Shown: positions 19,706 to 43,381 of the stretch, piece after piece
Numbering within the stretch: the first letter of the stretch is position 1
Layout: the number at the start of each line of letters is the position of its first letter
Assembly: GCA_036523395.1 (NCBI GenBank)
Contig: DATDEH010000122.1
Span: 28,429 to 92,428 of the forward strand
DNA: 64,000 nucleotides
Direction: 5' to 3'
Source of the DNA: Candidatus Limnocylindria bacterium
Lineage (GTDB): Bacteria; Chloroflexota; Limnocylindria; P2-11E
The notes under the pieces: model-generated
The model's database searches: none
The model's input: the letters and a program-made list of their open reading frames with translations, nothing else
Told to the model about the DNA's origin: nothing
Translations under genes and position numbers: made by a program

Positions 19706-20397
19706 AGTGCGGTCGCGTCCACCAAGCCGTTGCGCACGGCGTAGATCGCGGCCTGCGTGCGGTCCGAGACGTTCAGCTTTTCGAGGATCGCCGCGACGTG
19801 GCTCTTCACCGTTTCCGGTGAGAGCACGAGCTTGTCCGCGATCTCGCGGTTGGAAAGACCTTCGGCCACGAGTCCGAGGATCTCGCGCTCGCGCTTCGTG
19901 AGATTCTTCGCCGCGGAAGGCACGGGGCCCGCAGGCTTCATCTCGCTCAGCATGCCGCGAAGCAGCTTGGACTCGATGAACGCGCCGCCGGTGGAGACCT
20001 GACGGATCGCGTCGACGAGCTCTTCCTTTGAAACGTCCTTCAGGAGGTAGCCGGCAGCGCCGGCGCGCACGGCGTCACGAAGGTAGGAGGGGTTGTCGTG
20101 CATGGTGACCATGATCACCGCGGTGCGCGGTCGCTCCTCTTTGATGCGCTTGGTGGCCTCGAGGCCGTCCATGTCCGGCATGCGAACGTCCATGAGGACG
20201 ACGTCGGGCAGATCCCGGCGCGTGGCCTCGACGGCCTCGCGGCCGGTGCGCGCTTCACCGACGACCTCGATACCGTCGGCGTTGAGGAGCATTGCCGCGA
20301 CGCCCTGTCGGACCAGCTCGTGGTCGTCGACCAGCAGTACACGTGTGGCCACGGGCTGATTGTACGGTCCTCGGACGATGGAGCTCACCGCCGACAC
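19702..20397 (-). CDS. NarL/FixJ-family response regulator (REC + LuxR HTH)
   Basis: VLLVDDH…VLMDVRMPDMDG…K receiver, and a C-terminal LuxR-type HTH (LTKREREIL…SPETVKSHV). Confidence 0.8.
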   Translation of the reverse strand: MSAVSSIVRGPYNQPVATRVLLVDDHELVRQGVAAMLLNADGIEVVGEARTGREAVEATRRDLPDVVLMDVRMPDMDGLEATKRIKEERPRTAVIMVTMHDNPSYLRDAVRAGAAGYLLKDVSKEELVDAIRQVSTGGAFIESKLLRGMLSEMKPAGPVPSAAKNLTKREREILGLVAEGLSNREIADKLVLSPETVKSHVAAILEKLNVSDRTQAAIYAVRNGLVDATAL

Positions 20398-21002: not shown

Positions 21003-26438
<5,436 letters not shown>

Positions 26439-28503: not shown

Positions 28504-30647
28504 CACTCTCGCGCCTTCGCGGCTTAGACCCGCAGCGGTACCTCCTCCTCGCGATCGTCCTCGCCGTCGTCCTCTTCGACGCGATCACGCTCTTTCCAGA
28601 GGTCGTCGTACCTGTGCCGAGCAACAACGACGACGCGTTCCACTTCCTCTTCGTCCAGCGCGCGTCCGACGCGCTCGCGCGCGGCGCGAACCCGCTCGAT
28701 TTCTGGACACCGCAGCTCGAGCTGGGCTTCGCGAGCTTCGTGCACTACCAGAACCTCGCACACCTCGCCGTTGTCGCGCTCCATCGCGCGCTGTTCGGCC
28801 TGGTCGACATCTTCACGCTCTTCAACCTGATCCGGTATCTGCTGCTGGTGCTCTTCCCGCTCACCGTGCTGTGGTCGCTGCTCCGCATGGGCTTCACGTT
28901 CGCTCAGGCAGCGCTCGGCGCTGCCGCGTCGTCGCTTCTCGCGACACCGTTCCTGTACGGCCTCGACTACGCCTCGTACATCTGGCGCGGGTTCGGGACG
29001 TACACGCAGCTCTGGGCGATGCACCTATCGTTCATCAGCCTCGCTGCGGCGCACACCGTGATCACGCGCGGCCGGGGTCATGTTCTGGCGATCGTCGCCC
29101 TCGCGGCTTTGGTGCTCGTGCACCTGCTCTACGCGTACATGCTCGCGATCAGCGTCGGCGTGCTGTTCGTGGTGTCGCTTCGCCGCGCGTCCTGGCGCAG
29201 CCAGGTGCTCGGCATGGGCGCCGTCGGGCTCCTTGCGCTCGTGATCACCTCGTACATGTGGCTGCCGTACCTGCAGACCGCCGCGTACCTGAACGTGAGC
29301 CCCTATCTGCAGCCGGAGAAGTACGACGGCCTCGGCGCCGGTCAGGTCCTGCGTTACCTCGTGACCGGAGAGCTGTTCGACGGCGGGCGGCTGCCGATCC
29401 TGTCGCTCTTCGTTGGCCTGGGCATCGTGAGCGTCGCGTTCCAGCGGACACGGCTCGCCATCACGGCACTCGTGCTCTTCGCGGTCTGGCTCGTCCTGTA
29501 CTTCGGCCGGCCGACGCTCGGCGGCCTCATCGATCTCCTTCCGCTGCACCAGACCCTCTTCATCCATCGCTTCAGCGGCGCGGTCCACCTCGCGGGCATC
29601 CTGCTGATCGGCCTGGGCGCCGGGTGGCTCTGGGATCTGGCGGCCAGACGATCCCGGCGACCGTGGTTGCCACTCGCACTCGTCGCGGTCGCCTTCCTCG
29701 CGCTCGTGCCGGCGATGCGGGAGCGCTACGCCTTCTACGTGCAGAACCTCGACTGGATGCAGCAGACCCGAATCGCCATCGGCTCGGACGGCGACGCGAG
29801 GTCGATCGTCGATCAGCTGCGTACGCTTCCGGCGGGCCGCGTCTTCGCGGGTCTGCGCACCGACTACGGACCCGCGATGAACTTCGCGATCCCGTTCAAT
29901 TCCGTGCGCTTCAGCGATGTGCTCACGTTCAGCGCGATCGATACGGTCTCGCCGCCGTACAACTCACTGTCACTCTCGAGCGACATGCTCTGGGACTTCG
30001 ACTACCGACGCGCTGAGGATTACGACCTCTTTAACGTGCGGTACGTCGTCGCACCGGCGACGCTGCCCGCACCGTCCTTTCTCTCGGTACTGAGAAGGAC
30101 CGCGCGATACACGCTGTATCAGGCGCCCACGAGCGGCTACGGCGAGTACGTCATGGTCACGCGCCGGCAGGCCGTCGCAACATCGGGCGACCTCGTGCGC
30201 GCGAACCGACCGTGGCTGCTCGACGCCGCTCGCTCACAGCGCGACTTCACGGAGTGGGATTACCCAGCGGTGACGACACAGGGCGACCTCCCCGTATCAG
30301 GTTGCACGGGGAGCGAAGTGTCTGAGGTCCACGTTGCCGCGGAGCGGCTCGACCTCGCTACTTCGTGTGACAGCTCAGGCACCCTGCTCATCAAGGTCAC
30401 GTACGACCCGGGCTGGCGCGTGACGGTGGACGGGTCGTCAGTCGCGACGTTCATGTTGTCGCCGGCCTACCTCGGTGCCGCGATCCCCGCCGGGACGCAC
30501 AACGTCACGGCGCAGTACATCGGCACTCCGGCCAAGATGCCGCTCTTCGTCATCGGACTCGTGGTGCTCGTGGGACTCGCGCTGGTGCCGCGTCGGAATT
30601 GGTGGGCAGCGCGATTGACGCGCACGGCGGCTCCCCCGGTCGGGTGA
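28500..30647 (+). CDS. large polytopic membrane protein, YfhO-like (putative lipid-linked-glycan transferase family) with C-terminal extracytoplasmic domain
   Basis: ≥11 TM helices in the N-terminal 400 aa and a ~250-aa soluble C-terminal domain. Total size ~700 aa. The best start is CTG 28500, which overlaps the TPR stop (CTGA). GTG 28614 is the first canonical start but would truncate the first TM helix (LLLAIVLAVVLF). Confidence 0.5.
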   Translation: MTLSRLRGLDPQRYLLLAIVLAVVLFDAITLFPEVVVPVPSNNDDAFHFLFVQRASDALARGANPLDFWTPQLELGFASFVHYQNLAHLAVVALHRALFGLVDIFTLFNLIRYLLLVLFPLTVLWSLLRMGFTFAQAALGAAASSLLATPFLYGLDYASYIWRGFGTYTQLWAMHLSFISLAAAHTVITRGRGHVLAIVALAALVLVHLLYAYMLAISVGVLFVVSLRRASWRSQVLGMGAVGLLALVITSYMWLPYLQTAAYLNVSPYLQPEKYDGLGAGQVLRYLVTGELFDGGRLPILSLFVGLGIVSVAFQRTRLAITALVLFAVWLVLYFGRPTLGGLIDLLPLHQTLFIHRFSGAVHLAGILLIGLGAGWLWDLAARRSRRPWLPLALVAVAFLALVPAMRERYAFYVQNLDWMQQTRIAIGSDGDARSIVDQLRTLPAGRVFAGLRTDYGPAMNFAIPFNSVRFSDVLTFSAIDTVSPPYNSLSLSSDMLWDFDYRRAEDYDLFNVRYVVAPATLPAPSFLSVLRRTARYTLYQAPTSGYGEYVMVTRRQAVATSGDLVRANRPWLLDAARSQRDFTEWDYPAVTTQGDLPVSGCTGSEVSEVHVAAERLDLATSCDSSGTLLIKVTYDPGWRVTVDGSSVATFMLSPAYLGAAIPAGTHNVTAQYIGTPAKMPLFVIGLVVLVGLALVPRRNWWAARLTRTAAPPVG

Positions 30648-30757
30648 GGAAGCCTGGCGGACCCTGCAGGCGCAGTGGTCCCAACAACGCGCCCGCCGGG
30701 ACTAGGTTGCCCCTCGTTCGGTCACATTCACCGACCTAGATTTGCTGCAAGCCAAGA

Positions 30758-30864
30758 CCGAGAGGTCCTGGTGACCCGAGCGAAACGGCAAACCCGTCGC
30801 GAGGCGGGGACGCAAAGCCTCCGGACTCACAGAGTTAGCGGGGTTACCGAAACGAGGATGAGCG
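30758..30864 (+). promoter_or_regulatory. conserved ~105-nt 5' leader, copy 1 (candidate cis-regulatory RNA, possibly ydaO/c-di-AMP-type riboswitch)
   Basis: cccgagcgaaacggcaaacccgtcgcgaggcggggacgcaaagcctccggactcacagagttagcggggttaccgaaacgaggatgagcgATG. It is ~80 % identical to the leader at 32151-32257. Differences cluster as would be expected for compensatory stem changes. Confidence 0.45.
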
Positions 30865-32034
30865 ATGAAGAGCCTTCTGAAGATCGCGGGCGTGGGCGCC
30901 CTCGCACTGCTGGCACTGATGTTCGTCTTCCGTGTTCAGGCCAGCGCGAACGACGGCCCCTCTTGCGCCCCGACGGCCGGTTTCGTCCCCATGTTCTGCG
31001 TCAACGTGCCGGTGGGCACGAGCGTGCGTCACGAGACCACCGTCCCTCTGTCGACGGTCCTCACGACCCGCGCCGACGTCCGCGTCGAGTCGGGTATCCC
31101 GGCTCCCGAGGTCGTGCGCCTCGCCTCCAGTGTCGACATCGCCATCAGCCGCATCGATCAGGTCTTCGATCGCTCGTTCACGGCCAAGCCGCGGATCCTC
31201 GTCTTCGCGACGCGCGTGAGCTTCGCACGTGGCACGCAGGACCTCTTCGGCTACTCGCCCGAGACAGCGGCGAACGTCGCGGCTTCATACGGTGGCGTGT
31301 TCGACCCGCAGACGCTCACCATCGCACTGAGCTGGCAGTCGACGGCGGGCTCGAATCTCCCACGTCTTCTCACTCATGAGCTGACGCACCTCGCGACGCG
31401 CGAGCTCGTCGGCACCGACGCCGTGCTGCCGGCGTGGTTCGAAGAAGGCCTCGCCGCGGAGATCGAGGCGGGCGATGCCGGCATCGACAAAGACGCGCAG
31501 CTCGCGGCGCGCTCGCTTCTCGCCAACGCTCCACGCACGCTCGACACGGTCGGCACGCTTGCCGACTGGCACCGCGAGTATGCGAAGCTCGGGACCGCCC
31601 TCTACGCCGTCTCCGCCGAGCTCGTCGGAGCGATGGAAGCGCAGATCGGTCGCGGCACGATGTTCGCCCTCCTCGCCGATGTCGGACACGGGGTGCGTTT
31701 CGAGGATGCCTACCGCGCACGAGCGGGTGAAGACCTCGCTGCGCTCCTGGCCCGCTTCACCGCCGGTGCCGCGTTCCAGCCCACGGTCACGGTGGGGACC
31801 GTCCCGGACAGCAACGGCAACCTCCGATGGACACTCACTGGATTCGCCCCCAACAGCGAAGTGCGGATCACGATCTCGGGCACGAGCTACGACCTGGGTT
31901 ACTCGCTCCACACCGACGGGATCGGGATGCACCGCGGCACCTTCGGATCGACTGCGGCACCCGGGTCTTACACCCTGACGGCGAGGAGCACGAGCTTGTA
32001 CGCGACGGGCACGATCGACACGATGTCGCGCTAG
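30865..32034 (+). CDS. secreted HExxH-motif protein (putative zinc metallopeptidase)
   Basis: Signal peptide MKSLLKIAGVGALALLALMFV. THELTHL (HExxH) with a downstream EEGLAAE. ~390 aa. Confidence 0.55.
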   Translation: MKSLLKIAGVGALALLALMFVFRVQASANDGPSCAPTAGFVPMFCVNVPVGTSVRHETTVPLSTVLTTRADVRVESGIPAPEVVRLASSVDIAISRIDQVFDRSFTAKPRILVFATRVSFARGTQDLFGYSPETAANVAASYGGVFDPQTLTIALSWQSTAGSNLPRLLTHELTHLATRELVGTDAVLPAWFEEGLAAEIEAGDAGIDKDAQLAARSLLANAPRTLDTVGTLADWHREYAKLGTALYAVSAELVGAMEAQIGRGTMFALLADVGHGVRFEDAYRARAGEDLAALLARFTAGAAFQPTVTVGTVPDSNGNLRWTLTGFAPNSEVRITISGTSYDLGYSLHTDGIGMHRGTFGSTAAPGSYTLTARSTSLYATGTIDTMSR

Positions 32035-32150
32035 CGAGCGAGCGAGCGGAGTCCCCTTCTCTCATACCTATGGGGTAGTCCCATCGGCAGCCATTCCTGG
32101 GACCTCCTCGACCCTCGCGCCGGACCTTCGCGCACCTACGATTGCATGGC

Positions 32151-32257
32151 CAGAGAACGAAGTCTGGCCCGAGCGAAATGGCAAATCCGCCGCGAGGCGG
32201 TGACGCAAAGCCACCGGACTCTTCGGGTCAGCGGGGCTCCCGAAACGAGGATGAGTA
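32151..32257 (+). promoter_or_regulatory. conserved 5' leader, copy 2 (candidate riboswitch)
   Basis: cccgagcgaaatggcaaatccgccgcgaggcggtgacgcaaagccaccggactcttcgggtcagcggggctcccgaaacgaggatgagtaATG. Confidence 0.45.
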
Positions 32258-32977
32258 ATGAGATCTGTTCTTACGGCCGCTGGCGCCGGGATGCTGATGC
32301 TCTTCAGTCTGGTCTTCGTCTCGGCCGATCAGGCCAGTGCGAATGACGGTCCCCTCTGCACCACGACCGTCGGCTTCCTACCGACGCTCTGCGTGAGCAT
32401 CCCGCTCCCCGCAATCGTGCGGCGAGATGACGCGATCCCCACGACCGTCGCGAAGGATCGGACCGTTACGGCGCCGCAGGCTGACATCGCTCCGCGAACT
32501 GTCGAGATCGAACCAGGTGCGTCCGATATCCAGAGCGAGCCTGAGCGGGCGCAACCCGAGGCCCGAGCGCTCGAACCTGTATTCGACCTCGATGACCTTC
32601 GCGCTTACGCGCGCGACGCAGCCATCAGGCAGGGAATCGACCCCGTCCTCTTCGTGCGTCAGATCGATGCGGAGTCGGCGTTCGACCCGAACGCGGTCTC
32701 GAAGGCGGGCGCCGTCGGTATCGCGCAGCTCATGCCGGCACTGCATCCCGCAGTTGACCCCACCGATCCGTACGCGTCGCTGGATTACGCCGCGCGGCTC
32801 ATGCACGTGTACATCGCGCATTTCGGGAACTGGCGTCTTGCGCTCATCGCCTACAACGCCGGCCCGGGCCGCCTCATGCCTGGGAATCCCGCGTACCTGC
32901 CGACCTCGACGCTCCTCTCGAACTCGTTCGGCGGCGGTGAGACGAAGCGCTACGTCGCGAGGGTCCTCGGCCGTTAG
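32258..32977 (+). CDS. secreted lytic transglycosylase (SLT domain)
   Basis: Signal peptide. SLT catalytic block ESAFDPNAVSKAGAVGIAQLMP…YNAGPG. Its N-terminal 50 aa are homologous to the N-terminus of 30865..32034. Confidence 0.7.
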   Translation: MRSVLTAAGAGMLMLFSLVFVSADQASANDGPLCTTTVGFLPTLCVSIPLPAIVRRDDAIPTTVAKDRTVTAPQADIAPRTVEIEPGASDIQSEPERAQPEARALEPVFDLDDLRAYARDAAIRQGIDPVLFVRQIDAESAFDPNAVSKAGAVGIAQLMPALHPAVDPTDPYASLDYAARLMHVYIAHFGNWRLALIAYNAGPGRLMPGNPAYLPTSTLLSNSFGGGETKRYVARVLGR

Positions 32978-32986
32978 CGCGAGCTG

Positions 32987-33667
32987 CTAGCGGGCGGAGT
33001 CCTTCTCGAGCATGCCGCGGTTGTGCACGAACAGCGCGGCCTGCGTCCGATCCGTGAGCTCGAGCTTGCTGAAGATGTTGGAGATGTGCGTCTTCACGGT
33101 GCGCTCGCTGATGCCGAGCTGCGCGCCGATCTCCTTGTTCGCCCGACCGCTGGCGACGAGTCGCAGCACCTCACGCTCTCGCGGCGTGAGATCCGAGTAC
33201 ACATCGGTCTCTGACGACGGTGTTCCGCTGCGCAGCTGTCCGAACTCGTCTAAGACGCGGCGCGCGACCGACGGGTAGATGAGCGAGAAGCCGTCGGCCA
33301 CGGTGCGGATCGAGTTCGTGAGCTGCGTTGCGGTGACTTCCTTTAATAGGTAACCCGACGCACCGGCCCGGATCGACGAGAACACGAGATCGTCCTCGTC
33401 GTAGTTCGTCAGCACGATGACACGGGCCGACGGGACGTAATTGCGCACCCGCCGCGTCGCGGTGACGCCGTCCCAGTCGCCCATGTTGATGTCCATCAGC
33501 ACGACGTCCGGCAGCAGCTCTTGCGCGAGCTCGAGCGCGGCGTGGCCGTCGCCCGCCTCGCCGACCACTTCGATGTCCGGCTCGGTCTCGAGGATCGTGC
33601 GGAGACCGCTCCGGACGACGGCGTGGTCGTCGACGATGAGGATCCTGATGCGGCGCTTCTCGTTCAT
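32987..33667 (-). CDS. NarL/LuxR-family response regulator
   Basis: RILIVDDH…VLMDINMGDWDG…, LuxR HTH (LTPREREVL…SERTVKTHI). The ATG overlaps the upstream kinase stop (ATGA). Confidence 0.8.
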   Translation of the reverse strand: MNEKRRIRILIVDDHAVVRSGLRTILETEPDIEVVGEAGDGHAALELAQELLPDVVLMDINMGDWDGVTATRRVRNYVPSARVIVLTNYDEDDLVFSSIRAGASGYLLKEVTATQLTNSIRTVADGFSLIYPSVARRVLDEFGQLRSGTPSSETDVYSDLTPREREVLRLVASGRANKEIGAQLGISERTVKTHISNIFSKLELTDRTQAALFVHNRGMLEKDSAR

Positions 33668-35331
33668 CGACCGAGGAGCCTCGCGAAGAATCCGACCCGC
33701 TCCTTCGACTCTTCGACGGCCTCGGTGGGCTCGACGTGGTCGCCCGCCCGACGACCGTAGTTCTGGATCCGCACCGATTCGGTGGCGTACGGGATGCTCG
33801 CGCGGACGATGCTGCCCTTGCCGGGCTCGCTGCGGACCACGAGGTGCCCGCTCGCTGCCTCGGCGCGCTCGCGCATGCCGACGACGCCGAAGTGGCCGCG
33901 GTCCTCGGCGCCGCGGAACGTCTCCTCGACGTCGAAGCCCTTCCCGTCGTCCTCGACGGTGACGACGACCCCATCCTGGTCGTAGAGGAGAGCGACCTTT
34001 GCGGTCGTCGCGCCCGCGTGCTGCGCGACATTGCGGAGCGCCTCGCCGACGATGCGGATGACCGCACGCTCCACGACCGTGTCAAGCTCGCGTGGCTGCC
34101 CGCTCTCCTCCATCTGCACCTGTAGACCGGTCTGCCGCCGCAGGTCGTCAACGAGGCGGCCGAGGGTGACGGGGAGATTGAGCCCGCCCGTCACGCTCTG
34201 GCGCAGCGCGGTCATGTACTGGCGCACGTCCATGAGCGTCGCGCGCGCGTCGCGCGATGCCTTCGCGAGCTGCGGTCCGAGGAGCGCGGGGTCCTTGTCC
34301 AGCGCGCGCTGACAACCTTCGAGCGCGAGCACCACACCGGTGAGCTCCTGCGCGAGACCGTCGTGCAGCTCCTGCGCGATCTTTCGCCGCTCGGCCGACA
34401 CGCCTTGATCGACGACATCGGTCGACGTCGATCGCTGCAGCAGACCGACGAGATACTCACCGACGCTCACGCTGAAGTCGGCGTCGTCCTCCGAGTACTT
34501 CGCGTCCGCGCGTGCGGTCACGAGGACGCCGAGGGCGCCGATCGGTGTCACGAGGAAGTTCGCGCCTTCTGGCGGGGCCCACGCGGGCATCGTTTTGAGC
34601 TCGCCGAAGGTGCCACGCGCCGCGCGCTTCTCGCGGAGCACCGTCGCGAGCACGGTGTCCGATTCATCGACGGGCACCTCGGACGTCGCCTTGTCGTAGC
34701 CGGTGCCCGCACGAAAGCGCAGTCGATGCTCGGCGAGGGCCCAGATGCCGACCGCGTCGTGACCGAGAGCGCCGGCGAGCATCATCGCCGCGCCCTCGAG
34801 ATCGCTTTGGACGTCGGTGCCGAGCGTCGCGAGCCGCGAGAGCTCGAACAGCACCATCGCCTGCTTCCGGTCGTCCTCGGCCTGATGCAGGCGTGCTTCG
34901 ATCTCCTGCGTCTGTTTGCTCGAGCGCCACATCGCGTTCGCCTCAGCGAGCTCGAGGCCCGCGAGCTCCGCGAGTCGCGTGAGCGTCGGGATGTCGGCGT
35001 CGCCGATCTCGCGCCCGGCCACGAAGGCTGCGAGCGCGCCTGCGATCTGGTCGCGCCACACGATCGGCGCGGCGAGCAGCGTCTCGGCGTCGCGCCCGTC
35101 GCCGAGGTGCAGGGCACCGTTCTGTAGCTGCTCGGTCGATCCGGTCTGTACGACGCGCAGGAGCGCTTCGCCTGCGGCGCCCTCCCACGCGGTCTGCGGG
35201 ATGTTGTGCGCCGCGTAGGTGGAGAGACCGGACTGGCCTGGGAGAACGATGGCGATCCCGTCGAGCCTGCCGAGCGCCGCGAGGTGGGCGAGGCGCGCCG
35301 ACCAGAAGTCAGCGCTGTTCCTGCTGCTCAA
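33664..35331 (-). CDS. cytoplasmic sensor histidine kinase, GAF–GAF–HisKA_3–HATPase (NarL-partner type)
   Basis: H-box ERRKIAQELHDGLAQ, ATP-lid GHFGVVGMRERA, two N-terminal GAF-like blocks, no TM segment. Confidence 0.75.
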   Translation of the reverse strand: MSSRNSADFWSARLAHLAALGRLDGIAIVLPGQSGLSTYAAHNIPQTAWEGAAGEALLRVVQTGSTEQLQNGALHLGDGRDAETLLAAPIVWRDQIAGALAAFVAGREIGDADIPTLTRLAELAGLELAEANAMWRSSKQTQEIEARLHQAEDDRKQAMVLFELSRLATLGTDVQSDLEGAAMMLAGALGHDAVGIWALAEHRLRFRAGTGYDKATSEVPVDESDTVLATVLREKRAARGTFGELKTMPAWAPPEGANFLVTPIGALGVLVTARADAKYSEDDADFSVSVGEYLVGLLQRSTSTDVVDQGVSAERRKIAQELHDGLAQELTGVVLALEGCQRALDKDPALLGPQLAKASRDARATLMDVRQYMTALRQSVTGGLNLPVTLGRLVDDLRRQTGLQVQMEESGQPRELDTVVERAVIRIVGEALRNVAQHAGATTAKVALLYDQDGVVVTVEDDGKGFDVEETFRGAEDRGHFGVVGMRERAEAASGHLVVRSEPGKGSIVRASIPYATESVRIQNYGRRAGDHVEPTEAVEESKERVGFFARLLGR

Positions 35332-35347: not shown

Positions 35348-37657
35348 TCAGGCGATGGACGCTTCGCCCTCGATCCGGAACTCCAGTACGTTGCGGGTGC
35401 CGGACACGAGACGCAGCTGCGGCTCGGCGATCACGCGCAGCCCGCTGGCGAACTCCTCCGTCGTCATAGGAGAACGCAGCGCCACTGTCAGTGTCGCTAT
35501 GCCGCCGCGGAAGTCTCGGACGTACAGAGACCGTACGGTTGGTAGCGACTGGATACGACGCTCGACCTCCACCAGACGGGCGAACGAACGGACCGGCGAG
35601 AGCACCAGCTGAAGGTCGGTCGTCGGTGCGCCGGCCTCCACTCTCGCTGGGGGCACTTCGCGACCCTCGAGGGCTCGAAGCGGTGGCGGGACCGGCTGCT
35701 GGGCAGCGGCAGCGCGCGCTGCGGCGGCGCGACGCTCGCGCTCGGCCTGAAGCTCGGCGGCGACCTGTTCGGCTGCGGCCTGTTCTGCCATCGCGCGCTC
35801 GGCGGCGGCCCGCTCCGCGGCCGCGCGTTCCGTAGCCGCGGCGTGTTCGGCGGCTGCGCGTTCCGCCGCCGCGCGCTCCGCGGCCGCGCGTTCGGCGGCG
35901 CGCTGCGCGGCGGCGCTCTCAGCGAGCGCGCGCTCCGCCTCCGCACGTCGCTGCGCCGCGGCACGCTCGGCCTCGGCGCGCTCGTGCGCCGCGCGCTCAG
36001 CGGCGGCGTGCTCCGCGGCCGCGCGGAGCTCCTCCTGCGCGCGTCGCTCCTCGGCCGCGCGACGCTCCTCGATCGCGCGGTCCATCGCGGCGCGCTCTGC
36101 GACCGCTCGCCGTTCTTCTTCCGCCCTCCGCTCCGCCGAAGCGCGGCGTTCTACCTCGGCGCGTAGCTCGTCCGCGACGCGGCGTTCTTCGGCGGCGCGT
36201 TCTTCTTCGAGGCGTCGCTCTGTCGCTGCCTGCTCGGCTGCGGCGCGTTCCGCCGCCGCGTGCTCGGCTGCGGCTCGCTCCTCGTTCGCGCGCTGCTCCT
36301 CGTGAGCGCGTCGCTCCTCGGCGGCGATCCGCTCCTGTATCGCGCGCTCCATCGCGGCTGTCTCGGCCGCGGCGCGCTGCTCTTCTTCGGCACGACGCTC
36401 TTGCGCGAGCCGTCGCTCTTCCGCGGCGCGCTCCGTCGCCGCGCGATCCTCGGCGGCGTGCCGCTCCTCGATCTCGCGCGCTTCGGCCGCGGCGCGACGG
36501 TCTGCCGCAGCTCGTTCGGCGGCCGCGCGCTCTTCAGCGGCGCGGGCCTCTTCTGCTTCACGCTCGATGGCCGCGCGCTCCGCTGCCGCGCGCTCTTCCG
36601 AAGCACGGCGCTCTTCTTCCACGCGTCGCGCTTCTGCGGCGCGACGATCTTCAGCGGCGCGCTCTTCAGCGGCGCGCAGCTCTGTAGCGACACGCTCATC
36701 TTCGGCGCGACGCGCCTCGTCGGCTACGCGCCGCTCCTCCGCGGCACGCATCTCTGCGGCCTGCCGCGCTTCTTCGACCTGCCGCGCTTCTTCGACCTGC
36801 CGCGCTTCTTCGGCGAGTCGTTCTTCTTCGGCGCGCTCCTGCGCGGCACGCTGCTCTTCCTCGATGCGTCGCAGCTCGGCCGCAGCGAGCCGCTCTTCTT
36901 CGACGCGCCGGCCTTCCGCAGCGGCTCGTTCCTCTTCCTCGACGCGCCGAGCCTCGGCGGCTTCGTCGATAGCCGGGAAGACCTCTTCGTCCTCGAGTGT
37001 CGCGAAGACCTCGTGATCTTCGACGCGGTGCGCCTCCGCGGCAGGCCGCACGTCGTCCTCGAATGGCTGCTCGGCGATCGTCTCCGGGGCGACGACGATC
37101 TCTGGTCGAGCGACGGTCTCTGGTGCGGCGGCGACCGGCTCGTCGACCGTCGGCCAGGATTCTTCGATGCGCGGCGCGGCCGGCCGCGCGACGGGGGGAG
37201 TGGCGCGCTCGAGCGGTGGGGTCGGCGCGCGGCGGTACTCGTCGATCAGCTCTTCGAACAGACCGCGCAGCGCCTCCGATGCAGCGACGCGCATGTCGGA
37301 CGGACTGGCGTCGGCGGCGACTGGCCGACCGACAGGCGCGATCGCGCCGCGGCGCTGCTGCGCGATGTCGTCCTGGAGCTGGTCGTGCTCTTCGCGAAGC
37401 CGCTCGATCTCCTTCAGGAGCATCCGGCGTTCTTCGCGGGCCTGCTCGAGGATCTGCGAAGCCGTGGTCTCCGCCCGCTCGCGGATCTCGTACGCGGCGC
37501 GCAGGGCGCTCGCAAGCGCTTCCTGGGCGGTGGCGTCGTACTCCTCGTAAATGGCCGCTCGGCGCTGGGCGACCTCAAGATCGGCCTGGAGCTGCGTGAC
37601 GCGCTTGGCGAGCTCCGCCACCCGTGCGGACAGGGCAGCGACGATGTCGTTAGAGCT
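35348..37657 (-). CDS. DivIVA-like coiled-coil protein with ~500-aa Ala/Glu/Arg low-complexity coiled-coil and distinct C-terminal domain
   Basis: The N-terminus (VAALSARVAELAKRVTQLQADLEVAQRR…ILEQAREE) resembles a DivIVA coiled coil. Long (AAERAAAER)n-type repeats follow. The C-terminal ~100 aa are non-repetitive. GTG 37657 follows AAGG. It lies 16 nt upstream of the kinase gene. Confidence 0.5.
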   Translation of the reverse strand, partial: SSNDIVAALSARVAELAKRVTQLQADLEVAQRRAAIYEEYDATAQEALASALRAAYEIRERAETTASQILEQAREERRMLLKEIERLREEHDQLQDDIAQQRRGAIAPVGRPVAADASPSDMRVAASEALRGLFEELIDEYRRAPTPPLERATPPVARPAAPRIEESWPTVDEPVAAAPETVARPEIVVAPETIAEQPFEDDVRPAAEAHRVEDHEVFATLEDEEVFPAIDEAAEARRVEEEERAAAEGRRVEEERLAAAELRRIEEEQRAAQERAEEERLAEEARQVEEARQVEEARQAAEMRAAEERRVADEARRAEDERVATELRAAEERAAEDRRAAEARRVEEERRASEERAAAERAAIEREAEEARAAEERAAAERAAADRRAAAEAREIEERHAAEDRAATERAAEERRLAQERRAEEEQRAAAETAAMERAIQERIAAEERRAHEEQRANEERAAAEHAAAERAAAEQAATERRLEEERAAEERRVADELRAEVERRASAERRAEEERRAVAERAAMDRAIEERRAAEERRAQEELRAAAEHAAAERAAHERAEAERAAAQRRAEAERALAESAAAQRAAERAAAERAAAERAAAEHAAATERAAAERAAAERAMAEQAAAEQVAAELQAERERRAAAARAAAAQQPVPPPLRALEGREVPPARVEAGAPTTDLQLVLSPVRSFARLVEVERRIQSLPTVRSLYVRDFRGGIATLTVALRSPMTTEEFASGLRVIAEPQLRLVSGTRNVLEFRIEGEASIA

Positions 37658-37739
37658 ATTCACGCGGCCTTCGGCCAACGTGGACCGCCTTTCTTCCTCG
37701 CCTCTCCCCGCGCGAGGCCCCAGCGTACACAATTCAGCC

Positions 37740-38345
37740 GTGGCGAAGAAGGACAAGAAGGGCAAGAAGGACCCGGAGGCTCCCGTCGACCTGGCTGCGC
37801 GGATCGGCGCTCGTCCCGAGCCGCCGCCGACGGCGATCCCCGCGCAGCCTCCAAAGAAGGCAGAGCCCCCGCAGCCAGCGCGGCTCGATGCTCCGTTACC
37901 ACCGCGCCGCACCGAAGAGCGGCCGCGTGAGGAGCGTGCGCGCACGACGCCACCGGCTGCGACGCCGCCGGCGCAGGACCCAGGCTCGATGGAGTGGCCG
38001 TCGCCGATCCCGCCGCTCGACGCTCGCGTCGAGCCTGCGATCCCATCAACGCGAACGCCACCCGGACCGGGCGAGACTGATCTCGTTGTGACACCTCTCC
38101 CCACCCCTGACGACTGGCATCGGTTCGAGCTCGCGCTGCGCCGCGTTCGCGGTGTGGGGCAGCTGAAGACCGAGTACTACCGACACTCGGTGTTGAAAGT
38201 GCGCGTCAGCTACAGCGGTGCGGATCGTCTCGCGCACCTGCTTCGCGCCGGCATTCCCGGGTACCGCGTGCGCGTGATCGGCGAAGATCGAAAAACGCTC
38301 CAGATCCTCGTCGCATCGGAGTCGGACGAACGCCGACCCGGCTGA
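37740..38345 (+). CDS. hypothetical protein: Lys-rich N-terminus, Pro-rich linker, C-terminal ~80-aa domain
   Basis: GTG 37740 (VAKKDKKGKKD…). The C-terminal block LVVTPLPTPDDWHRFELALRRVRGVGQLKTEYYRHSVLKVRV… resembles the C-terminus of the divergent coiled-coil protein. Confidence 0.4.
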   Translation: MAKKDKKGKKDPEAPVDLAARIGARPEPPPTAIPAQPPKKAEPPQPARLDAPLPPRRTEERPREERARTTPPAATPPAQDPGSMEWPSPIPPLDARVEPAIPSTRTPPGPGETDLVVTPLPTPDDWHRFELALRRVRGVGQLKTEYYRHSVLKVRVSYSGADRLAHLLRAGIPGYRVRVIGEDRKTLQILVASESDERRPG

Positions 38346-38385: not shown

Positions 38386-39669
38386 ATGAGCTCAGACCTC
38401 GAACGCCGCGCGAAGCGCGTGCTCTCACCACTTCCCGGCCGCTACACCTGGCTGCCGCTCGACCGCGGCGAAGGCAGCTGGCTCATCACCAAGGACGGCC
38501 GCCGCGTGCTGGATCTCACCTGCGGCATCGCCGTCACGAATGTCGGCCACGCGCATCCGAAGGTCGTGAAGGCGATCAGCGAGCAGGCCGCGAAGCTCAT
38601 GCACATATCGACCGGCGTCGCGACGTACGAGTCGAACATCGCGCTCGCCGAGGCGCTCGGCACCGTGACGCCGCGCGGCCTCGACACGGTGTTCTTCGGG
38701 AACTCGGGCGCTGAGGCCGTCGAGGCGTCGATCAAGCTCGCGCGCCAGTTCACGAAGCGCCAGGCGATCATCGCGTTCCGCGGCAGCTTCCATGGCCGCA
38801 CCGCCGGTGCTCTCACCGTGACGACCTCGAAGTCGTCGTATCGCCTCGGCTACGGTGCGATGCTGCCCGAGGTCTACATCGCGCCCTACCCATACGCCTC
38901 GACCTGTCCGATCAAGCCGGCGCACGACGCGGCGACGTGCGCGGAGCACTGCCTCGCCGAGCTCGAGACGATGCTCGAGCACGAGGTCCCGCCGGAGCAC
39001 GTCGCTGCGATCCTCATCGAGCCGGTCCTCGGCGAGGGCGGCTACGTCGCGCCACCCAGCTCGTTCCTCGTTGCGCTACGCGAGCTCGCGACGCGCATCG
39101 GCGCATTGCTCGTGATGGATGAGGTCCAGACCGGCTTTGGCCGCACCGGCGCGTGGTTCGCGACGCAGAAGCACGGCGTCGATCCCGACATCCTCGTCCT
39201 CGCGAAGGCGCTCGGCGGCGGACTGCCGCTCGGCGCGATCGTGACGTCGCGCGAGATGCAGGAGAAGTGGATCTCCGGCACGCACGGCTCGACATTCGGC
39301 GGCAATCCCGTGTCGTGCGCGGCGGGTCTCGCATCGTTCGAGATCATTCGCGACGAGGGCCTCGTCGCGCGCGCGGAGCGACTGGGCGAGCTCATGGTGA
39401 AGGAGCTGGCGCCGCTGCGATCCGATCCACGCGTGCGGGAGATCAGGCGATTCGGCGCGATGGTCGCGATGGAGTTCGATACCAAGGCCACCGCGAAGGC
39501 CGCGATCGCCGGCGCGCTCGAGCGCGACGTGCTGCTGATCACGTGCGGCGCGCACGACCAGGCCGTCCGCTTCATCCCCGCGCTCAACATCGCGGAGGAC
39601 GACCTGCGCCTCGGCGTGCGTGCGCTCGTCGCGGCCGCGACCACCTCCAGGACACCGACACCGGCCTGA
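38386..39669 (+). CDS. class-III PLP-dependent aminotransferase (GabT/ArgD/LysJ-like)
   Basis: GNSGAEAVE…, DEVQTGFGRTG, and a PLP-Lys in the LAKALGGG region. 427 aa. Confidence 0.8.
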   Translation: MSSDLERRAKRVLSPLPGRYTWLPLDRGEGSWLITKDGRRVLDLTCGIAVTNVGHAHPKVVKAISEQAAKLMHISTGVATYESNIALAEALGTVTPRGLDTVFFGNSGAEAVEASIKLARQFTKRQAIIAFRGSFHGRTAGALTVTTSKSSYRLGYGAMLPEVYIAPYPYASTCPIKPAHDAATCAEHCLAELETMLEHEVPPEHVAAILIEPVLGEGGYVAPPSSFLVALRELATRIGALLVMDEVQTGFGRTGAWFATQKHGVDPDILVLAKALGGGLPLGAIVTSREMQEKWISGTHGSTFGGNPVSCAAGLASFEIIRDEGLVARAERLGELMVKELAPLRSDPRVREIRRFGAMVAMEFDTKATAKAAIAGALERDVLLITCGAHDQAVRFIPALNIAEDDLRLGVRALVAAATTSRTPTPA

Positions 39670-39788
39670 CACCGGGCTGATCCAGCCCGAAGGTCACCTC
39701 GTGCTCGGCATTCGGTCCTGATTCAGTCCTGGTTAAGCGTCGTCCTCCGCGTCGCCACGTTGTAAACGTCGAGACGGGGAGGTAGGCG

Positions 39789-40493
39789 ATGCAGACACCC
39801 AGCACTGCGTTGCTCGTCGAGGACGATCCCCAGGTCGCGGCGACGCTGCGACGTCATCTGGCGCGCGCGGGCTTTGTCGTGTACGACGCGAGCAATGAGC
39901 GAGAGGCCGTTCATCGCGTCGAAGAGATCGCGCCCGATGTCGTCATCCTCGATATCGCGCTCGACAGCGGTGGTGCGGACGCGTGCCGCCGCATCCGCGA
40001 GCTTGCGTCCGGTGGCGACGTCCCGATGCTCGTGCTCTCGGCCGCGCAGGACGTGACCACGAAGCTCGCGGCGTTCGAGCTCGGCGCGGACGACTTTGTC
40101 ATCAACACCTGCGACCCATCAGAGCTGCTGGCCCGCGTGCGCGCGATCCAGCGTCGTGGCGCTGATCGCCGCACGGTGCGGCGCATCGGTCCGCTCCGCA
40201 TCGCGCTCGCGACCGGCGACGCGTGGCTTGCCGATCATCAGCTCGATCTCACGAACGGAGAGCGCGCCGTGCTGGTCGAGCTCGCTCGCGCGTATCCCGG
40301 TCTCACCGCACGCACGGCGCTCGACCGCCGGCCCGACCAGGAGCACGAAGTGAGCTCGAACGTGACCGAAGTACTGGTCGCCCGCCTGCGTCGAAAGATC
40401 GCGGCCGCGGGCGGCGGCGTGGAGATCAACGCGGTCCGGCGGTCCGGTTATGTGCTGCGACCGATGGCGACCACCGCAGACATCCCCGTCTAG
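39789..40493 (+). CDS. OmpR-family response regulator
   Basis: ALLVEDD…VILDIALDSGG…, C-terminal winged helix (…RSGYVLRP). GGGGAGG SD. Confidence 0.75.
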   Translation: MQTPSTALLVEDDPQVAATLRRHLARAGFVVYDASNEREAVHRVEEIAPDVVILDIALDSGGADACRRIRELASGGDVPMLVLSAAQDVTTKLAAFELGADDFVINTCDPSELLARVRAIQRRGADRRTVRRIGPLRIALATGDAWLADHQLDLTNGERAVLVELARAYPGLTARTALDRRPDQEHEVSSNVTEVLVARLRRKIAAAGGGVEINAVRRSGYVLRPMATTADIPV

Positions 40494-40573
40494 GAGCCAT
40501 TCGGGCCAGCACGTTCGTACGGGGGGCCGGTCAGGTCCCGTTCAGGAACCCCGCCTACGGTTCGAACCTGCGC

Positions 40574-41173
40574 ATGGGCGAGTTTTTCGGGGGCCTCGCA
40601 AGTGGCGAGCGTTGCGAACGTGGTCAGGCGATCGTCGAGGTCGCTCTGATCCTGCCGCTGCTCGTATTCCTCATCGTCGGGACCATCGAGTTCTCGCTGC
40701 TGTTGAACGCACGCAACACCGTGAGCTTCGCCAGCCGCGACGGCTCGATGCTCGCGGCCGAGGGCGGTAGCCGCGCGGGCACCGACTGCGTCGTTCTCCA
40801 GGCGGTCGAGCGCGATCTCGTCGCGCCGGCGAGCGCGATCAAGGTCACTCAGATCAAGGTCTATTGGTCCGATCAGAACGGCGACGAGATCGGCAGCAAC
40901 CACAACCTCTACACGCGCGGTGGCTCGACGACGTGCGATTACGGCGATGGGACCTCGATCACGGTCCCGTACTCACTCACGACCGCGAGCTACATCGAGG
41001 ACATCCGCTGCGACGTGCTCGCCGGCTGCGGTGGCTCGCACACTTCGCTCGACACCGTCGGCGTCGAGATCACCTACGTCCACCTCTGGCTGACGTCGTT
41101 CGGTCGCATCACGGGCGGCACGGGTCTCACCTTCAACGTGGCGAACACCACGCGGATCGAGCCGCAACTGTGA
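40574..41173 (+). CDS. TadE-like pilus-assembly/pseudopilin protein
   Basis: N-terminal TadE motif RGQAIVEVALILPLLVFLIVGTIEFS. Confidence 0.65.
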   Translation: MGEFFGGLASGERCERGQAIVEVALILPLLVFLIVGTIEFSLLLNARNTVSFASRDGSMLAAEGGSRAGTDCVVLQAVERDLVAPASAIKVTQIKVYWSDQNGDEIGSNHNLYTRGGSTTCDYGDGTSITVPYSLTTASYIEDIRCDVLAGCGGSHTSLDTVGVEITYVHLWLTSFGRITGGTGLTFNVANTTRIEPQL

Positions 41174-41775
41174 GCCTCTTCCGGCGCGACGAGCGCGGCC
41201 AGGCGGTGCTCGAGTTCGCGCTCCTGCTGCCGCCGCTGATCCTCATCCTCGTCTTCGGCATGATCGAGATCGGCTCGGCCTTCAGCCACAACATGTCGAT
41301 CGCGTCGGCGACGCGCGAGGGCGCGCGGATGGGCAGCAACCTCGCCAACGGCGGCGGTCCGCTGGGGTGTGGGGTGGGGCAGTCGCCGAACGCCGCCAGC
41401 GTCGATCCCCGGATCATCGCCGCGGTCGAGAAGATCCTCACCGGCACCGGCACGCTGGTTTCGCTCGCTGATGTGACCGAGATACGGATCTTCAACGCCA
41501 CGGCCACCGGGGCGGAGAACCCGGGCTTCGTCAACAGCTGGGTCTATACGCCCGGGGCCGGCCCTGTGATCGACGGCGATCCCCTCGACTTCTCGCCGTC
41601 CGGCGGGACCGGCTGGGCCGCCTGCGCGCGCAACAACGCCCTTCCGGCGGACAGCCTCGGTGTGACCGTGAGATACACCTACCGAGCGCGCACGCCGCTG
41701 CGGAGCTTCATTCCGTTCCTGAACACGATCCCGATGGTCGACAAGACCGTGATGACGCTCAATGCGACGCGGTAA
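41172..41775 (+). CDS. TadE-like protein (second copy)
   Basis: ERGQAVLEFALLLPPLILILVFGMIEIGSAF. GTG overlaps the upstream stop (GTGA). Confidence 0.65.
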
Positions 41776-43381
41776 GCCGGTCGCCATCACCGCGGACCGT
41801 CTGCGCGAGGCATGGCGTGAGGAGCGTGGTCAGAGCTTCGTCATCGTCGCGGTGATGCTCACGGTGCTGCTCGGGTTCATGGGCATCGTGATCGATATCG
41901 GCTGGTATGAGGTCAACCTCATCCGCGTGCAGCGCGCAGCGGACGCCGCCGCGCTTGCCGGCGTCGTCTACCTGCCGGGACAACCTGCGACCGCGACGAC
42001 CGCCGCCCGCAACGAGGCCACGAAGAACGGCTACACGCATCTCACAGGTGGCGTGGTCGTGACGGCCACGCAGGATCCGATCAACAACCGGATCATGCTC
42101 ACGACGGTCAGCGCCCCGGTGCAGACCTTCTTCGCGAGACTCTTCGGCATCACCTCGCTGACCGCGATGCGCAACGCGCGCGCCGAGTTCATCCTGCCGG
42201 TGCCAATGGGGAGCCCGCAGGATTACTACGGCATCTACCAGCTCTGCCAGAGCGGCGGGACGTGCGCCGCGGTGCATGCGGCGCCCGACAGCGGCAGCGG
42301 TCCCATCCTTTCTTCCCAGGGCTTCTGGGGCGCGGTCATCACCAAGGGCGGTCAGCGCTCGAACGGCGACGCGTACTCGCCGGCGTTCAACGGCGGCACG
42401 AGCCCCAACGCTAGCTACGACCCCAACGGATACAGCTACAGCGTCGAGTTCGGGCCGTCCACGGCGAACGGCGAGGTCTGGCTCTTCGATCCCACGTTCT
42501 GCGCGGTCGGTCACGGCACGAGCGGCTCGTATCTCGGCACCGGTGATCACTGGATCGGTAGCGGCGGCGTGCCCGTCACGACCGACTACCGGCTCTGGGA
42601 CACGAACGGCACTCCGTATGCGACCTCGGACGACACCCTGCTCGCGAGTCAGTCGTTCTCGTCCGAGAACCAGGTCGACAAGGGTTCGACTTACCGAGGC
42701 GACCAGAGGTACTCCGATGGGGGCTACAACGGCTCGGGCTCGAGCAACTGCCAGGGCGATCCGTATCACAACAACTGGTTCCGCCTGGGAACCGGTCTCG
42801 GCGCGGGTCTCTTTCGCTTGCAGGTCACCACCAGCAGCTCCAGCAACGACAGCACCAGCGCCGAGAACATGTTCGGTATCCAGGTAAAGTCGAACGGCCC
42901 GGTCGGAGGCCGGGTGTACGGGCAAAGCCGCATGGCCGCGTACGCGAACGTGAACGCAGGCGCGTCCCTCTTCTACCTCGCGCAGGTGGATGCCGTGCAC
43001 GCCGGAAAGACGCTCGAGATCCGACTCTTCGACCCGGGCGACGTCGGCGGTACCGCGACGCTTCGCATCAAGAAGCCAACGCCGACGGGGTACGTGAACG
43101 CCACCTTCAACTACACGGCGAACGGCGGCGCCGGCTCACAGAGCGGCACGAACGTGTCGTCGCTCCTCACCGCGAACAGCGGCGCGTCGCAGTACCAGAA
43201 CGCGTGGGTCACGATCACGATCCCGCTGCCCGCGAACTACGGCGTCGGTGGACTGACGCCGCCGGGGGAGACCGAACCAGGCTGGTGGAAGATCGAATAC
43301 ACGATCACAGCGGCCGGCAACGACACGACGACGTGGGAAGTGAATATCCGCGGCAACCCCGTGCATCTCGTCATCCCTTAG
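41762..43381 (+). CDS. TadG-like pilus-assembly protein (Tad N-terminal domain + large Gly/Ser/Thr-rich extracellular region)
   Basis: ERGQSFVIVAVMLTVLLGFMGIVIDIGWYEVNLIRVQRAADAAALAG resembles the Tad N-terminal domain of putative Flp-pilus proteins. Confidence 0.6.
   Translation: MRRGKPVAITADRLREAWREERGQSFVIVAVMLTVLLGFMGIVIDIGWYEVNLIRVQRAADAAALAGVVYLPGQPATATTAARNEATKNGYTHLTGGVVVTATQDPINNRIMLTTVSAPVQTFFARLFGITSLTAMRNARAEFILPVPMGSPQDYYGIYQLCQSGGTCAAVHAAPDSGSGPILSSQGFWGAVITKGGQRSNGDAYSPAFNGGTSPNASYDPNGYSYSVEFGPSTANGEVWLFDPTFCAVGHGTSGSYLGTGDHWIGSGGVPVTTDYRLWDTNGTPYATSDDTLLASQSFSSENQVDKGSTYRGDQRYSDGGYNGSGSSNCQGDPYHNNWFRLGTGLGAGLFRLQVTTSSSSNDSTSAENMFGIQVKSNGPVGGRVYGQSRMAAYANVNAGASLFYLAQVDAVHAGKTLEIRLFDPGDVGGTATLRIKKPTPTGYVNATFNYTANGGAGSQSGTNVSSLLTANSGASQYQNAWVTITIPLPANYGVGGLTPPGETEPGWWKIEYTITAAGNDTTTWEVNIRGNPVHLVIP

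Follow-up and report, generated by a model that had tools for sequence, protein, structure and literature searches.

We have analysed a 64,000-nucleotide (nt) stretch of DNA, hereafter the window, from a soil Candidatus Limnocylindria of the phylum Chloroflexota, and in it a minus-strand gene, here called the tether gene (Table 1), whose product consists of three parts: an N-terminal heptad coiled coil (the N-domain), a long spacer rich in Ala, Glu and Arg, and a conserved globular domain at the C-terminus (the C-domain). Directly behind the gene lie those of a soluble histidine kinase and a NarL/LuxR-type response regulator, an arrangement that recurs throughout the Limnocylindria-type loci that have downstream DNA and in Dehalococcoidia-type relatives. 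Our reading, which we hold tentatively and as possible rather than probable, is that the protein serves as a cytoplasmic, three-part oligomeric tether or adaptor for the two-component system encoded behind its gene. A literature search found no paper describing this family.

Conserved ends and a variable spacer

The C-domain is the most conserved and most informative part of the protein and defines the tether family; this had been overlooked in the original prediction, an earlier reading of the same DNA, which mentioned the C-terminus only as globular. That globular character is confirmed by an AlphaFold2 model built from a 14-sequence alignment, in which the domain has a confident fold (predicted local distance difference test, pLDDT, 90.8; predicted template-modelling score, pTM, 0.82). 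A C-domain profile scan of species-representative genomes yielded 47 loci, 36 of them with a full-length gene, all in metagenome-assembled genomes (MAGs) of Limnocylindria or other Chloroflexota save for a few bins labelled as other phyla, and the domain is 51-97% identical to that of the window across these 47 loci. It gave no Pfam match at E≤10 and no PDB sequence match, and a Foldseek search returned nothing significant, the best PDB match having an E-value of 0.047 and the best viral matches, to uncharacterised proteins, one of 0.002. The weak PDB matches were to S6-, ACT- and RRM-type sandwiches with template-modelling (TM) scores of 0.4-0.5; many of the top 50 were ACT-type chains (E 0.08-0.3), the matches being weak throughout (E 0.05-0.3, TM 0.4-0.5). 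Since no match is significant, we assign the domain to none of ACT, RRM, S6 or SPOR, although its fold belongs to this broad alpha/beta-sandwich type.

When the C-domain profile was run against 1.84 billion representative proteins, 113 carriers were found. The domain is C-terminal in the single-copy carriers, and most of the complete ones combine it with the tether N-domain and a variable linker. In one protein (P0139), a NarL-type receiver (REC) domain is followed by a linker and the C-domain, which there replaces the DNA-binding domain; this fusion ties the C-domain to phospho-signalling. The domain is also carried by an LpoB-like lipoprotein (P0144) from a MAG of the Holophagaceae, by P0060 and P0132, which have 4-6 copies of it in tandem behind a hydrophobic N-terminal segment, and by a multi-pass membrane protein (P0138).

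Among the 36 full-length relatives the N-domain (50-96% identical to that of the window protein) and the C-domain are both conserved, while the spacer between them ranges from 92 to 629 residues; even the closest relatives, those with an N-domain identity of 90% or more, differ in its length, which lies between 448 and 629 residues. Within clades the spacer alternates between Ala/Glu/Arg-rich (A/E/R-rich) and Pro-rich types; some relatives have short Pro/Ala-rich spacers or acidic ones of a different kind, and the A/E/R-rich spacers use clade-specific repeat units of the AAERA, RAAEAARAAQEA or EPRREERRE type. The spacer is net acidic in 34 of the 36 relatives (net charge -3 to -49). Because the ends are conserved while length and composition turn over, the region behaves, on the evidence of sequence comparison, as a physical spacer and not as a specific rod. 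The Scy/FilP-like long coiled-coil rod proposed earlier is not supported: among orthologues in orthologous operons the rod may be A/E/R-rich or Pro-rich and 92-629 residues long, so that it is lineage-specific and replaceable, and the block in the window has neither a hydrophobic seam nor a heptad or hendecad periodicity.

The window protein has an acidic linker after its second conserved helix; it is not conserved between clades and, by its sequence, is probably disordered. The A/E/R block that follows had been correctly recognised as a near-pure Ala/Glu/Arg region, but its length is 425 residues and not the ~500 first given. Ala makes up 35% of it, Glu 26% and Arg 21%, and Lys is missing altogether; 48.5% of the residues are charged, and the large hydrophobic residues (LIVMFYW) amount to 7.5%. 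No periodicity of 3.5 or 3.6-3.67 residues (heptad or hendecad) was found in the block for either the hydrophobic residues or Ala, the Fourier power at period 3.5 being 0.06 and 0.04, respectively. The dominant period is ~5.5 residues, reflecting units of five or six residues (AERAA and EEARQV, for example), and the DNA repeat periods (mostly 15, 18, 30-39, 48 and 63 nt, with tandem repeats spanning 15-78 nt) agree with such units; the heptad-like repeats originally described are not confirmed.

Opposite-charge pairs at i+3/i+4 are enriched in the block, at 0.37 per residue versus 0.23 ± 0.018 in shuffled sequences, and Arg(i) to Glu(i+4) pairs number 75 versus 24 ± 3.8. Single alpha-helices, which are often mistaken for coiled coils, are recognised by a richness in Glu, Arg and Lys, the lack of a hydrophobic seam and many i±3/4 pairs (PMC5347031), and the block shows all three of these sequence features. 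Given its scarcity of large hydrophobic residues, the missing periodicity at 3.5 residues and the strong Arg-Glu pairing at i/i+3-4, it is probably a salt-bridge-stabilised single alpha-helix spacer rather than a coiled coil. Of the two forms that the original prediction had left side by side, the single long helix is thus the more likely one. If fully helical, the 425 residues would span ~64 nm at 0.15 nm per residue; single alpha-helices are known to serve as spacers and constant-force springs (PMC4183817).

The gene itself is intact. Its frame runs without interruption to position 35348, in agreement with the ~770-residue product that had been predicted. Of the limits 35348-37657 first assigned, the lower one stands, whereas 37657 falls within the gene; the start was moved 21 nt further upstream, to a TTG, on account of the homologue N-termini (MAEGRVNSS, MEGRVHGG, MADGRVNAS) and the onset of conservation, and a purine-rich Shine-Dalgarno sequence, GAGGAAGAAAGGCGG, stands ahead of it. 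It is scarcely conceivable that the open reading frame (ORF) is spurious or a product of mis-assembled low-complexity DNA. Such DNA does break most short-read assemblies, and most homologues retrieved by protein searches end inside the repeats, at contig ends; however, the N- and C-domains are conserved at the protein level across Chloroflexota classes, the C-domain folds with the high confidence given above, and intact genes, encoding 691-872 residues, are present in six close relatives whose MAGs are independent. With these intact copies, and a spacer length that varies among loci, the frame is not an assembly artefact. The low-complexity DNA also generates antisense ORFs, as had been noted; six of at least 100 residues lie on the plus strand within the gene, and they result from the sense codon composition GCN/GAR/CGN. 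The largest within the tether gene encodes 556 residues (36260-37930, plus strand) and has a gene-like GC1/2/3 profile of 0.76/0.55/0.83, which mirrors the sense codon positions and nothing else, and which could mislead gene callers.

The N-domain and its possible relation to DivIVA

Heptad periodicity in the tether protein is confined to the first ~115 residues, where the hydrophobic periodicity peaks at 3.55 residues with a Fourier power of 1.54. The DivIVA-like N-terminal coiled coil of the original prediction is therefore genuine as a heptad coiled coil, but its likeness to DivIVA is weak, below threshold and limited to the stalk. The full-length protein has no Pfam (E≤0.1) or NCBIfam match. 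The isolated N-terminus matches the Pfam DivIVA profile (PF05103) with an E-value of 4.9e-5 and 23.7 bits, the gathering threshold of that profile being 28 bits, and it does so at profile positions 26-123 only, which correspond to the coiled-coil stalk of DivIVA and not to its head. The lipid-binding head (profile positions 1-25; F..[FR]RGYD..EVD.FL) is absent from the tether protein, and the conserved N-terminus of the family, GRVN..DI..LS.RV.EL, is unlike this motif. A PDB profile search with the N-domain found no DivIVA chain; only generic coiled coils matched, and those weakly, crescentin (E 0.015) among them. On both defining tests for DivIVA, the head and the score, the window protein fails.

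Most tether homologues carry precomputed PF05103 matches, and some members are named DivIVA-domain proteins by NCBI and JGI. One distant relative (P0141, labelled DivIVA by JGI) begins with VKSFGLRFRGYDPELVD, a canonical DivIVA head ('F..RFRGYDPELVD'), and ends with the tether C-domain; its stalk aligns with the N-domain of the window protein in hhalign with an E-value of 1.3e-4 and a probability of 54%. PDB sequence searches with the window N-terminus and with P0141 returned neither DivIVA nor any other informative structure. To judge from these sequence relationships, the tether family probably derives from DivIVA.

Operon partners and gene context

The kinase gene starts with a TTG 16 nt past the tether stop, the gap originally reported, and is preceded by AAGGGGGAAGG; the ATG of the regulator gene overlaps the kinase stop by 4 nt (ATGA), confirming the overlap between the two partners. 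In the kinase, Pfam recognises HisKA_3 and HATPase_c domains (E 9e-15 and 7.6e-12), with the H-box ELHDGLAQ present, and one GAF domain (GAF-A). Two GAF-like domains with a connecting helix of 60 residues between them are seen in an AlphaFold model of residues 1-312 (pLDDT 81.8), and Foldseek places this model among tandem-GAF and GAF-PHY proteins (Cph2, 1e-12; PDE2A, 1e-11; CyaB2, 1e-10). No transmembrane-like segment was found in the tether, kinase or regulator proteins (for the kinase, the maximum 19-residue Kyte-Doolittle mean is 1.41), so that the kinase is indeed the cytoplasmic double-GAF enzyme that had been predicted. The regulator combines REC and GerE domains (Pfam E 4.9e-28 and 4.8e-23) and is 94-98% identical in close relatives. 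In most relatives (loci L015-L048, for example L041:8328-10478), the kinase has 701-728 residues and carries an extra N-terminal module of ~160 residues, probably a third GAF; in the clade of the window this module has been lost and the kinase has 554-558 residues.

A PDB sequence search with the kinase core matched DesK, VraS, DevS and DosT. In its soluble GAF-GAF-HisKA_3-HATPase architecture and its pairing with a NarL-type regulator, the system resembles DosS/DosT-DosR (DevS-DevR) of Mycobacterium, but no sequence match links its GAF domains to the haem-binding GAFs of DosS and DosT. A haem-sensing, DosS/DosT-like kinase was considered and dropped because only the ATPase domains of DevS/DosT match, with no GAF similarity.

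The coupling to a dedicated two-component system, which the original prediction had singled out in the window, is strongly conserved. Wherever downstream DNA is available, in 46 of 46 Limnocylindria-type loci, 5-33 nt separate the tether stop from the start of a multi-GAF HisKA_3 kinase, and a NarL-type regulator follows the kinase in every such locus whose sequence reaches far enough. The coupling extends to Dehalococcoidia-type relatives (P0128 = MEE8174515.1; P0119), in which the tether gene is followed, in this order, by genes for a multi-GAF kinase, a NarL regulator and a REC-MshEN or REC-MshEN-GT2 protein. The tether and kinase genes overlap by 4 nt in L055-L057. A metagenome scan contributed 72 more loci, with one class in which the tether is followed by the kinase and often by a second, paralogous kinase. 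Two paralogous multi-GAF kinases stand in tandem behind the tether in L064, L070, L075, L076 and L082, and in L064, L075 and L082 a NarL-type regulator lies upstream on the opposite strand.

A paralogous group of ~40 loci (group C) has no kinase; here the tether gene lies ~190 nt before a gene for a REC-MshEN-GT2 protein of 1550-1630 residues. These tether proteins have a Pro/Glu-rich linker and occur in Limnocylindria as well (HEV8536929.1, 'DivIVA domain-containing protein'). Group-C linkers (P0062, P0075 and P0085; L049 and L051) contain repeated (I/V)VDE(Y/F)VEELRRPE-type, 'VDEYVEELRRPE'-like motifs, which could either be binding motifs of the short linear type or have seeded the expansion of E/R-rich repeats. 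All four genes are consecutive in L026 and L027. A REC-domain or two-component partner is the feature shared by the linked contexts and the P0139 fusion. MshEN is a high-affinity receptor of cyclic di-GMP (c-di-GMP) that can be fused to glycosyltransferases (PMC5013675); the MshEN of E. coli NfrB exerts control over an exopolysaccharide synthase (PMC8669469). Given these roles and the linkage to REC-MshEN-GT2 proteins, the output of the module plausibly concerns envelope polymers.

On the other side of the tether gene, only 61 nt separate its start codon from that of a divergent neighbour gene that is conserved in relatives. The neighbour protein has no Pfam match. It has a Lys/Pro-rich N-terminus, with (KKD/KKG)x3 at 37746-37772, a Pro-rich middle and, at ~38058-38321, a paralogue of the C-domain; its C-terminal ~90 residues are 75-98% conserved in 32 Limnocylindria loci. 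In a local profile-profile comparison (hhalign), this C-terminus aligned with the C-domain family over 87 columns with a probability of 95.9% and an E-value of 5.3e-9; the single-sequence comparison was non-significant (E 0.095). Additional C-domain-like genes flank the relatives L058, L061 and L085. The paralogous C-domain of the neighbour and these extra copies near relatives suggest that C-domains pair with each other. In the gap between the two start codons, an element preceding the Shine-Dalgarno sequence is conserved though the flanks have otherwise diverged, possibly serving as a promoter together with a leader or a regulator site; a scan for consensus sigma-70 promoters found none. Terminator-like matches inside the repeats are likely composition artefacts.

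Table 1. Features of the tether locus (positions in the window)
Feature	Coordinates	Strand	Description and basis
Tether gene	35348..37678	-	776 aa; TTG start 37678; TGA stop 35348-35350; ORF and translation
N-domain, residues 1-115	37334..37678	-	Heptad coiled coil with a weak resemblance to the DivIVA stalk
Second conserved helix, residues 127-150	37229..37300	-	SDMRVAASEALRGLFEELIDEYRR; block 'ASEALRGLF.E' in homologue alignment and distant loci
Linker, residues 151-240	36959..37228	-	Pro/Glu/Val-rich; P 13%, E 17% (approximate stretch); net charge -18
A/E/R block, residues 241-665	35684..36958	-	425 aa; Lys-free Ala/Glu/Arg repeats
C-domain, residues 679-776	35351..35644	-	98 aa; conserved beta-alpha-beta-beta-alpha-beta-beta domain, no family assignment
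Histidine kinase	33664..35331	-	GAF-GAF-HisKA_3-HATPase_c, 555 aa, TTG start; Pfam, model and Foldseek
Response regulator, NarL/LuxR-type	32987..33667	-	REC and GerE, 226 aa; Pfam, NCBIfam
Upstream element	37704..37732	-	TTGTGTACGCT (-10-like TACGCT), ~10 nt, C(A/G)CGCGGGGAG; by eye, several clades
Divergent neighbour gene	37740..38345	+	~201 aa; GTG at 37740 probable start, uncertain; translation

Further away in the window, an 1800-residue ORF (21036-26438, plus strand) joins a REC domain to the c-di-GMP receptor MshEN, to FecR and to long G-X-Y repeats of the collagen triple-helix kind; over REC-MshEN it shares 44% identity with the REC-MshEN-GT2 giants found after paralogous tether genes elsewhere. 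In having tether paralogues ahead of such giants, the family recalls the MshEN glycosyltransferases (E. coli NfrB), but in the window ~9 kb lie between the REC-MshEN protein and the tether gene, and FecR and collagen-like repeats take the place of GT2 in the fusion. A second NarL/LuxR-type response regulator (19702-20397, minus strand) is divergent from, and just upstream of, the REC-MshEN-collagen gene. The surroundings at 28614-32977 and 38386-43381 are envelope- or surface-related and partly syntenic in relatives, with a YfhO-like membrane protein, an MA-family peptidase and an SLT lytic transglycosylase on one flank and a class-III aminotransferase, an OmpR-type regulator and TadE/TadG pilus genes on the other. 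With TadE/TadG nearby and a prepilin peptidase after P0099, an association with Tad or type IV pili is an unproven lead only.

The proposed tether and its alternatives

Beyond the architecture, conservation and synteny observed here, we infer the steps of binding and localisation as follows. The N-terminal coiled coil would oligomerise the tether protein and perhaps anchor it at a cellular site. The spacer would project the C-domains over tens of nanometres (~64 nm in the window protein if fully helical, 14-94 nm across relatives), and each C-domain would act as a protein-protein module, binding a REC-domain or kinase partner and/or the paralogous C-domain of the neighbour. As a result, phosphotransfer signalling would be placed or regulated, probably controlling envelope or exopolymer genes. 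A bolder extension, which we regard as unlikely, would have a Chloroflexota-wide, DivIVA-derived class of tethers, defined by the C-domain and paired with a small protein that carries a paralogous C-domain, physically link the localised synthesis of envelope polymers to cytoplasmic GAF kinases, NarL regulators and REC-MshEN (c-di-GMP) effectors, with freely evolving single-helix or polyproline spacers (~14-94 nm) as molecular rulers.

Several observations weigh against a tether for the two-component system. One subgroup of the family (group B; P0122, TMD61743.1) stands alone with no signalling neighbours, and P0141 is likewise without a two-component neighbour, so the link is not universal. 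The C-domain also occurs in predicted extracytoplasmic proteins, namely the LpoB-like lipoprotein and the tandem-copy proteins, and is therefore not inherently a REC-specific binder. As the membrane-binding head of DivIVA is missing, anchoring at a membrane or pole is conjecture. The hosts are uncultured and known as MAGs only, and the functional claims are computational. Furthermore, designed single-helix sequences with Arg only aggregated in vitro at low salt (PMC5347031), and the A/E/R block may accordingly self-associate instead of forming a monomeric rod.

This last point leads to an alternative in which multivalent self-association of Arg/Glu-rich helices and acidic linkers would build a hub or condensate, a matrix at the pole or mid-cell in which signalling proteins are concentrated. 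The absence of Lys from the block, the strongly acidic spacers of almost all relatives and the repeated motifs of the group-C linkers would suit such a matrix, whereas the Pro-rich spacers of sister clades are without the E/R pattern, and we consider it quite unlikely; its analogues would be PopZ and the acidic repeats of HubP. Only rather unlikely, in our estimate, is an accessory sensor, in which an ACT-like C-domain binds a ligand or senses a state and switches the GAF kinase, with the coiled coil serving for oligomerisation alone. The translationally tight linkage to the kinase and the many ACT-type regulatory domains among the top Foldseek matches, weak as these are, point that way, and three-component HisKA_3 systems with an accessory protein exist (LiaFSR and NreABC, where LiaF pairs with LiaS and NreA with NreB). 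The tether locus shares with them a three-gene HisKA_3 module, but the tether protein is unrelated to NreA or LiaF; no significant ACT match was found by structure or sequence, group C keeps the protein with no adjacent kinase, and a simple allosteric partner needs no long spacer.

Two further alternatives would leave the two-component system without a physical partnership with the protein. That it is an orthodox DivIVA orthologue for division or polar growth, its expression regulated by the system, agrees with the weak DivIVA profile match and with the canonical head plus C-domain retained in P0141; the missing head, a score under the Pfam cut-off, the failure of the family profile to find a DivIVA structure and the presence in Limnocylindria of at least two paralogues, each with different signalling neighbours, make this more doubtful still than the condensate. 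A cytoskeletal filament of the Scy, FilP or crescentin type that organises growth, with a merely co-regulated two-component system, would account for the true heptad coiled coil of the N-domain, its weak profile match to crescentin and other coiled coils and the DivIVA-domain names given to some members. However, the A/E/R block is poor in large hydrophobic residues and lacks a 3.5 or 3.67 periodicity, and relatives with the same ends and the same operon have Pro-rich, non-helical spacers down to 92 residues, which a filament rod would not tolerate. We consider a filament very unlikely; compared with the sensor, the hub and the orthodox DivIVA, it is the least compatible with the composition and the turnover of the spacer.

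Taken as a tether, the protein would by analogy be most like the polar or DivIVA-type scaffolds that position kinase-type proteins, and also like single-helix tethers such as INCENP. Polar scaffolds positioning histidine kinases are known from Caulobacter (PodJ-PleC, SpmX-DivJ and PopZ). In Streptomyces, the pseudokinase PsmA interacts with DivIVA, and the two co-localise (PMC12963549). The likeness lies in the pairing of a coiled-coil or disordered scaffold with histidine-kinase-type proteins; there is no homology, and in the tether locus the pairing is encoded in a tight operon, the predicted scaffold having a novel globular domain of its own. INCENP holds Aurora B kinase on a single alpha-helix 'dog leash' (PMC4571873), with a long helix between an anchoring and a kinase-associated module as proposed here, although the kinase of the tether is a separate polypeptide.

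With DivIVA itself (B. subtilis DivIVA, actinobacterial Wag31), the tether protein shares a scaffold-type architecture and perhaps, at a weak profile level, the stalk signature A..A..I...A..eA..il..A in the N-domain, and P0141 keeps the canonical head; the tether protein differs in lacking the lipid-binding head, in its sub-cut-off score and in having a 530-residue spacer, a new C-domain and a two-component operon. The roles of the DivIVA domains were reportedly described by Oliva et al. in 2010. Scy, FilP and crescentin are likewise long, helix-prone, charged proteins of high-GC bacteria, and Scy is said to have a 51-residue repeat (Walshaw et al., 2010); theirs are continuous heptad or hendecad hydrophobic seams, whereas the tether block has none and the region is dispensable in relatives. 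The high Glu/Arg content, missing seam and enriched i/i+3-4 ion pairs are those of ER/K single alpha-helices, and stretches such as ERAAAERAAAERAAA resemble Ala-based salt-bridged helices and rigid (EAAAK)n linkers. Unlike the ER/K helices, the block, a putative monomer, is Arg-only, without Lys and with 35% Ala; at 425 residues it is also longer than the single alpha-helices characterised in the papers cited here, such as the designs of 98 residues (PMC5347031).

If the tether reading is right, the locus would represent a genetically hard-wired partnership between a scaffold and a kinase, in a phylum whose cell biology has barely been explored, and the A/E/R block would be among the longest natural salt-bridged single helices, bacterial and Arg-only. 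A new small domain, found in fusions with REC, DivIVA-like coiled coils and LpoB-like lipoproteins, would also join the repertoire linked to two-component systems. The repeat region explains the near-constant truncation of tether genes in short-read assemblies and their mis-annotation. The orthologue series, with spacers of 92-629 residues, is a natural experiment on how the length and stiffness of a tether bear on signalling.

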